A DNA stretch of 64,000 nt from Escherichia coli (GTDB lineage Bacteria > Pseudomonadota > Gammaproteobacteria > Enterobacterales > Enterobacteriaceae): NCBI RefSeq assembly GCF_050920415.1, contig NZ_CP169309.1. One strand, given 5' to 3'. Positions 42,508 through 43,623 of this stretch are shown here, in pieces. Every line of letters starts with the position of its first letter. The stretch's first letter is position 1. The notes beneath the pieces were generated by a model. It ran no database searches and was not told the DNA's origin. It saw nothing but the letters and a program-made list of their open reading frames with translations. The position numbers were made by a program, and so were the translations under genes.

Positions 42508-42535
42508 TTTACAGCGGCGTGTCATTTGATATGAT
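42508..42535 (+). promoter_or_regulatory. tyrT promoter: -35 TTTACA, 16-bp spacer, -10 TATGAT, GC-rich discriminator
   Basis: tttacagcggcgtgtcatttgatatgatgcgccccgc read directly; stringent-control-type discriminator. Confidence 0.85.
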
Positions 42536-42585
42536 GCGCCCCGCTTCCCCACAAGGGAGCAGGCCAGTAAAAAGCATTACCCCGT

Positions 42586-42670
<85 letters not shown>

Positions 42671-42704
42671 TCTCAAGCATTACATCAAAATTTGAATTAT
42701 CCCT

Positions 42705-42789
<85 letters not shown>

Positions 42790-43501
42790 TCACTTTCAAA
42801 AGTTCCTGAAATCCCCAACAAATCCACAATTAAATATTCTGCCCATGCGGGGAAGGATGAGAAGCTTCGACTAAGGTTCGACTCGAGCGCCAGCGAGAGA
42901 GCGTTGCCGCAGGCAACGACCCGTAGGGCGAAGCGCGCAGCGCTGAGTAATCCTTCCCCCACCACCATCACTTTCAAAAACCCCTGTATTCTCCAACGAA
43001 TCCGTAACTGAATATTCTGCCCATGCGGGGAAGGATGAGAAGCTTCGACTAAGGTTCGACTCGAGCGCCAGCGAGAGAGCGTTGCCGCAGGCAACGACCC
43101 GTAGGGCGAAGCGCGCAGCGCTGAGTAATCCTTCCCCCACCACCATCACTTTCAAAAACCCCTGTATTCTCCAACGAATCCGTAACTGAATATTCTGCCC
43201 ATGCGGGGAAGGATGAGAAGCTTCGACTAAGGTTCGACTCGAGCGCCAGCGAGAGAGCGTTGCCGCAGGCAACGACCCGTAGGGCGAAGCGCGCAGCGCT
43301 GAGTAATCCTTCCCCCACCACCATCACTTTCAAAAACCCCTGTATTCTCCAACGAATCCGTAACTGAATATTCTGCCCATGCGGGGAAGGATGAGAAGCT
43401 TTGACTAAGGTTCGACTCGAGCGCCAGCGAGAGAGCATTGCCGCAGGCAACGACCCGTAGGGCGAAGCGCGCAGCGCTGAGTAATCCTTCCCCCACCACC
43501 A
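42790..43501 (+). repeat. Four tandem 178-bp direct repeats (rtT region), each ending in the last ~19 nt of tRNA-Tyr
   Basis: Unit boundaries 42790-42967, 42968-43145, 43146-43323, 43324-43501; copies 2-4 near-identical, copy 1 diverged at its 5' end; each ends ccttcccccaccacca. Confidence 0.9.
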
Positions 43502-43623
43502 TCACACCCTTAAATACTCAAAACCTGTTACTTCAAGCTAATTTGCCCCGTGGCACCGCGTTTACCGGACCTACAATATCCTCCCCTATATGTCAGATAA
43601 GCGAATCACTCCGCAGCGTACCC

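Follow-up and report, generated by a model that had tools for sequence, protein, structure and literature searches.

Why do two tRNA-Tyr genes of Escherichia coli stand only 34 bp apart? The question arises from a stretch of 64,000 nucleotides on contig NZ_CP169309.1 (hereafter the window, that is, the whole stretch that was analysed). A sequence-only reading of this DNA had noticed the short spacer between two identical tRNA-Tyr genes, tentatively put the spacer of the classical tyrT doublet at roughly 200 bp, and proposed that, if so, the locus had undergone a deletion or rearrangement. The spacer and its letters were quoted correctly, and the length given for the classical doublet is right as well, since the tyrT–tyrV spacer of MG1655 measures 209 bp. 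The 34-bp spacing itself is treated here as a structural fact, to which a test against chance is not applicable.

The anatomy of the locus is summarized in Table 1. ARAGORN identifies exactly two tRNA genes in the 64-kb window, and the Rfam tRNA matches are located at the same positions. The two genes, each of 85 nt and mutually identical in sequence, are placed on the same strand, directly downstream of purU (+ strand) and upstream of narI (- strand). The name tRNA-linked repeats (TLRs) denotes units that copy, at their 3' end, the final 18-19 nt of the upstream tRNA; they have no known function (PMC8144298), and the earlier descriptions of Egan & Landy (1978) and Rudd (1999) are taken here as summarised in that paper. 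The array that follows the second tRNA gene is of this kind, for its four full-length RtT matches score 124-133 bits against a gathering score of 45, and the 3' end of each unit is the last 19-20 nt of the tRNA. Given the promoter pattern, the tandem tRNA-Tyr genes and the RtT array, the locus is therefore the tyrT–tyrV operon of E. coli with its tRNA-linked repeats, in the region purU–tyrT–tyrV–RtT repeats–narI. The search for open reading frames across the region gave spurious frames only, which overlap the tRNA genes and the repeats.

Table 1. Features of the tyrT–tyrV locus, with positions counted along the window.
Feature	Position	Strand	Basis	Remarks
tRNA-Tyr(GUA), first of the pair (tyrT position)	42586..42670	+	ARAGORN (anticodon GTA), Rfam	
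tRNA-Tyr(GUA), second of the pair (tyrV position)	42705..42789	+	ARAGORN (anticodon GTA), Rfam	
Inter-tRNA spacer	42671..42704	+		34 bp, reads tctcaagcattacatcaaaatttgaattatccct; equivalent to the final 34 bp of the 209-bp spacer in K-12, with 2 mismatches
20-bp direct repeat AATCCTTCCCCCACCACCAT, one copy kept	42652..42671	+	Alignment with K-12	Deletion junction would lie somewhere inside
tyrT promoter-like site	42508..42535	+	Consensus scan	TTTACA, 16 nt, TATGAT, with TG
Array of 4.1 copies of a 178-bp tRNA-linked repeat	42771..43505	+	Repeat structure and Rfam	
Rfam RtT (RF00391) matches in the downstream array (n=4)	42836-42967, 43014-43145, 43192-43323, 43370-43501	+	Rfam	

In MG1655, the spacer is composed of a 175-bp RtT-like tRNA-linked repeat, termed U0 here, followed by TCTCAAGCATTACCTCAAAATTTGAATTACCCCT, which is the 34-mer of the window with two substitutions. 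Against RF00391 the K-12 U0 reaches 132.9 bits, and it terminates in AATCCTTCCCCCACCACCA, which duplicates the 3' terminus of the tRNA (its last 19 nt). Between the tRNA genes of the window, no RtT match is found by Rfam, and the interval from 42670 to 42705 leaves no room for a U0; the K-12-type long allele, with a 175-bp RtT-like unit between the tRNAs, is thus absent. When the window, K-12 and E. albertii are aligned, a single clean 175-bp gap appears, whose ends are located inside the 20-bp repeat and which contains no filler bases. K-12 has two copies of that repeat, one at the 3' terminus of the tRNA and the other where the 175-bp spacer unit ends, and the window has one; the same boundary is seen in other genera. 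A gap that ends in a direct repeat, of which one copy is kept, is the mark left when DNA between direct repeats is precisely deleted or inserted.

Apart from the 209-bp spacer with U0 in K-12 against 34 bp and no U0 in the window, the two loci are alike in the position between purU and narI, the promoter hexamers, the tRNA sequence, the 34-nt segment and the presence of downstream 178-bp repeats. The tyrT promoter region is that of K-12 except for one base in the promoter spacer. Between this promoter and the first tRNA, positions 42549-42552 form a small variable patch in the transcribed leader, which reads CCCCACAAGGG in the window, CCCGATAAGGG in K-12 and CCCGCTAAGGG in E. albertii. The number of downstream 178-bp copies, which is 4.1 in the window, 3.1 in K-12, 2 in O157:H7 and 1 in O104:H4, changes fast between close relatives. 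For example, strain 2013C-4282 has three annotated RtT units against 4.1 in the window, despite the identity of the two over 501 bp.

Then, what could the remaining 34 bp do? The tyrT and tyrV genes share the tyrT promoter (PMC2887954), and neither upstream of the tRNA genes of the window nor between them does the consensus scan find any promoter-like site except that of tyrT, consistent with a single sigma-70 promoter. The idea of a second promoter in the spacer, taken from a TACAAT-like motif of some species, was dropped, since the consensus scan finds none in the 34 bp of the window. The 34-nt segment is A/U-rich and contains AAGCATTAC and ATTATCCCT, resembling the end of the tyrT leader, AAGCATTACCCCGT, at 42572-42585. 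It is conserved in 65 Enterobacteriaceae loci (see below), in long and short alleles alike. Because it is both conserved and similar to the tyrT leader, the segment is probably the 5' leader of the second tRNA. By analogy with what is known of K-12, both tRNAs would be cut from one precursor transcribed off the single tyrT promoter. To judge from its sequence, the 34-nt segment would then provide an endonuclease site at which the 3' trailer is cut and the 3' end of the first tRNA freed, as well as the leader that RNase P removes from the second. Strains with the long form would release U0 RNA in addition, and the strain of the window would not. The window keeps the promoter, both intact tRNAs and the conserved 34 nt, and lacks only U0. 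Folding of the two-tRNA precursor gave a minimum-energy structure without cloverleaves, which is uninformative on the accessibility of the spacer.

Is the short spacer a peculiarity of this strain? Among 5,426 complete E. coli genomes, a 34-mer query detects the short junction in 2,850 (52.5%) and a U0-specific 65-mer has matches in 1,920 (35.4%), at up to five U0 places per genome. The 34-bp segment with short flanks, which fits both forms, is found in 4,797 genomes, near the sum of the two alleles, and the remaining ~12% have a single tRNA-Tyr gene or another arrangement. In the 34-mer search, each split piece of the query is too short for the E-value limit, and the resulting count tallies with the estimate obtained by subtraction from the other two. 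Longer junction queries, counted by coverage, were dropped, for with them split pieces are joined into one place. The short spacer is the majority allele of E. coli, and K-12 carries the minority allele. Among reference strains, O104:H4 and O111 strains have a spacer of 34 bp, and LF82 has a variant of 33 bp. Consequently, the short spacer is no anomaly of this strain; it is an ordinary, already catalogued polymorphism and a common old allele. Several types of short-allele spacer exist in E. coli, namely that of the window, that of O104:H4, one identical to the K-12 34-mer, and the 33-nt type of B2, which closely resembles the spacer of Escherichia sp. MOD1-EC7003. With A at position 14 and T at position 30, the exact 34-mer of the window is a rare variant.

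Short spacers are also present in many other Enterobacteriaceae. About 100,000 species-representative genomes were scanned for tRNA-Tyr genes whose start is preceded, at 20-50 nt, by the 3' end of a tRNA, real or pseudo. The scan, which recovers that arrangement only and does not reach species such as E. fergusonii, yielded 70 Enterobacteriaceae loci, 65 of which hold at least two tRNA-Tyr genes (ARAGORN). The spacer measures 22-37 bp in 48 of these 65 loci and is longer in 17 (202-214 bp in 15, 138 bp in one and 386 bp in one). The long forms include E. albertii, Citrobacter youngae, C. portucalensis, Klebsiella michiganensis, K. spallanzanii, Raoultella, Kosakonia quasisacchari, Lelliottia, Kluyvera sichuanensis and Phytobacter. 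The tandem tRNA-Tyr loci of the sampled genera are orthologous. In 63 of the 65, purU is situated ~160-350 bp upstream, and the two remaining loci contain too short a stretch of upstream DNA for a judgement. Every long-form spacer closes with the conserved segment of ~34 nt, preceded by a pseudo tRNA 3' end, and related short and long pairs in Kosakonia, Lelliottia and the Citrobacter amalonaticus group have closely similar spacer ends of ~34-36 nt. In Citrobacter, Kosakonia, Lelliottia, Kluyvera, Pseudocitrobacter and Escherichia, the long and the short form occur intermingled, and on a neighbour-joining tree built from purU only, at least 12 changes of allele state are needed.

Such a distribution could be reached by loss of U0 or by its gain. 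Across genera, U0 shares 84-95% identity with that of K-12, against just 63-73% with the downstream units in its own genome. Its identity of 86-91% compares with 80-82% for purU overall and ~50% for the third codon positions of purU. The divergence of U0 tracks that of purU (Mantel r=0.39, p≈0.0004), and between genera no pair is more than 95% identical. Since U0 follows purU in this way and lacks such highly similar inter-genus pairs, its history argues for vertical descent under purifying selection over recent transfer. A U0-like element cannot be re-created once lost. That U0 is nearly alike across genera, yet far from the downstream units, strongly suggests that the long form is the old, ancestral one, and recurrent deletion of U0 between direct repeats is the best reading of the short form. 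The older form would have consisted of the first tRNA, the 175-bp RtT-like U0, the 34-nt leader and the second tRNA. Because U0 ends in a copy of the tRNA end, the 20-bp repeat would bracket exactly 175 bp, and slippage in replication, or recombination between the repeat copies, could have cut U0 out precisely, leaving the first tRNA, 34 bp and the second tRNA. E. coli is well known for deletions between short repeats of the kind considered here (20 bp long, 175 bp apart). On the simplest reading, the long form is ancient and U0 was lost from it precisely and repeatedly; the exchange of alleles by homologous recombination may contribute as well. Taken as a whole, the explanation that the window carries a short allele of the tyrT–tyrV operon, derived by deletion of U0 and processed as proposed above, is given a probability of roughly 0.8. 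Of the earlier proposal of a deletion or rearrangement, the 175-bp gap relative to MG1655 holds, and deletion is its better reading, but the event is special neither to this locus nor to this strain.

Could the change have run the other way? If the 34-bp spacer were ancestral, the K-12 types would have gained 175 bp by unequal crossing-over from the downstream 178-bp repeat. Unequal crossing-over plainly occurs at this locus, as the triplets, a spacer with three U0 copies and a U0-type unit found downstream indicate; short spacers outnumber long ones in the sampled loci; and Fitch parsimony on the purU tree places a nominally "short" state at the root, short taxa being more numerous. However, the K-12 U0 shares just 68% identity with the downstream units of K-12 itself, and 84-95% with its counterparts in E. 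albertii, Klebsiella, Citrobacter, Kosakonia, Kluyvera and Lelliottia. It is thus an old, separate paralogue whose divergence follows purU, rather than a recent local copy. A recent local duplication as the source of U0 is largely refuted, and we regard an insertion as very unlikely. A private recent deletion in this strain, or the collapse of a repeat during assembly, would accord with the rarity of the exact 34-mer, for a match of >=99% to the 80-nt junction is found in only 18 genomes. It is refuted by the occurrence of the same junction in the 2,850 E. coli genomes and many other genera. Two independent complete assemblies are moreover 100% identical to the window region, MFDS1022581 over 2,901 bp and 2013C-4282 over 501 bp, and the collapse of a repeat should merge the 85-bp tRNA copies rather than excise U0 precisely. 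The probability left to this explanation is close to nil.

A further history, in which the lineage of the window received an existing short allele by homologous recombination from an E. coli or other Escherichia donor, so that an old polymorphism is shared across lineages, is possible, if less than probable. It is suggested by the several distinct types of short spacer in E. coli, among them the B2 type near that of Escherichia sp. MOD1-EC7003, and the highly conserved flanks (purU and the tRNA genes) would favour recombination; several independent deletions fit the same pattern. Acquisition of this kind would complement the deletion of U0 as the main explanation, for the allele would still have begun as such a deletion.

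The predicted fold of U0, based on orthologues from the loci L001, L004, L014, L047, L062, L067 and others, comprises 47 pairs, 10 of which show compensatory changes, and the 5' GGGGAAGGGU is predicted to pair with the pseudo tRNA 3' end. The conservation and the compensatory changes point to purifying selection on an RNA. That U0 is a functional structured RNA under such selection, and its loss a maintained presence/absence polymorphism that perhaps tunes the processing of the tRNA-Tyr precursor or tRNA-Tyr dosage, is a doubtful proposition on the whole. If true, short-spacer strains would be natural knock-outs, and the function of a tRNA-linked repeat could be tested by the comparison of strains.

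These elements have known counterparts. U0 is itself a TLR (RtT, RF00391), for it lies in a tRNA operon, matches RF00391, and carries at its 3' end a copy of the last 18-19 nt of the upstream tRNA; the spacer of the window is without a TLR, and the TLRs of the window lie downstream of the second tRNA only. Unequal recombination from doublet to singlet at the su+III (tyrT) locus was reportedly described by Russell et al. in 1970. The supF strain OV2 has lost one tRNA plus RtT (PMC12584984). These rearrangements and those considered here are alike in proceeding via short homologous repeats within the locus, and natural singlets, triplets and hybrids were found in the present survey. However, in the su+III singlets and OV2 the 85-bp tRNA copies recombine and the number of tRNAs changes, whereas in the short-spacer allele the 20-bp repeat of the 3' end would have recombined, with both tRNAs kept and U0 alone lost. 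In addition, 3'ETS-leuZ is a functional tRNA spacer RNA (PMC8144298). It is an RNA fragment freed from a tRNA precursor by processing, and U0 would be released likewise; a function is known for that spacer RNA, in contrast to the TLRs of tyrT.

The tyrT locus, the TLR/RtT repeats and the instability of the doublet are all classical, and thousands of RefSeq genomes carry the short allele in their annotation. The short spacer therefore represents variation in a fully known system rather than a novel type of feature. A literature search found no paper describing the polymorphism of long and short tyrT–tyrV spacers. K-12 is unrepresentative at this locus, and primers, recombineering arms and read-mapping built on its 209-bp spacer misfit more than half of E. 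coli strains. Well conserved across genera and yet dispensable in most strains, U0 offers a natural experiment for the tRNA-linked repeats, a family without known function.

The modules of the locus also occur in other permutations. With T for a tRNA-Tyr gene, U0 for the inter-tRNA unit, U for the downstream 178-bp unit and numbers for the spacer in bp, K-12 is written as T–U0–34–T–3U, O157:H7 as T–U0–34–T–2U, O104:H4 as T–34–T–1U, both LF82 and RM10740 as T–33–T, OkiPb01711 as T–1U, and AR_451 as a lone T, with a single tRNA-Tyr gene and no RtT unit. In E. coli Z142-1 (L076:1571-2129), three tandem copies of U0 lie between the tRNAs, giving a 559-bp spacer and the order T–3×U0–34–T–3U. Outside E. 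coli, Citrobacter amalonaticus ku-bf3 (L046) shows T–35–T–U0, with a U0-type unit 85% identical to the K-12 U0 downstream of the second tRNA, and a related Citrobacter MAG (L025) shows T–U0–35–T, with U0 between the tRNAs. Comparison of the two indicates that the modules have been shuffled by several unequal exchanges.

The tRNA genes themselves vary as well. In E. albertii (L004), the first tRNA-Tyr gene has CACAGAC in the variable region, which we take to be tyrU-type sequence, and the second gene, like those of E. coli, has CATCGAC; the two copies are thus not identical. E. coli AREA_C483 has the order T–34–T–34–(tRNA/TLR hybrid), where the hybrid is a 153-nt element annotated as tRNA-Tyr (L079:1724-1876). 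This element joins tRNA-Tyr nucleotides 1-67 to the 3' portion of an RtT unit, as if 68 nt had been inserted into the T-loop. The RtT units therefore share AAGGTTCGA homology with the tRNA T-arm. The hybrid is also present in Citrobacter sp. MGH106 (L053), where it comes after the third tRNA, and in E. coli it is rare (4 of 5,426 genomes).

Matches in plasmid and phage collections proved uninformative. The tRNA-Tyr doublet matches 32 records of the plasmid collection, several of which are 4.8-5.4 Mb long and evidently mislabelled chromosomes, with most others non-mobilizable, and the two "phage" matches are Salmonella contigs. At the usual place of narI, genes for an acyl-CoA (fatty-acid) desaturase and a sterol desaturase are found in LF82 (L074, 1883-3099) and AR_451 (L077, 1587-2875). 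Their location directly after the tyrT locus suggests an insertion beside the tRNA genes.
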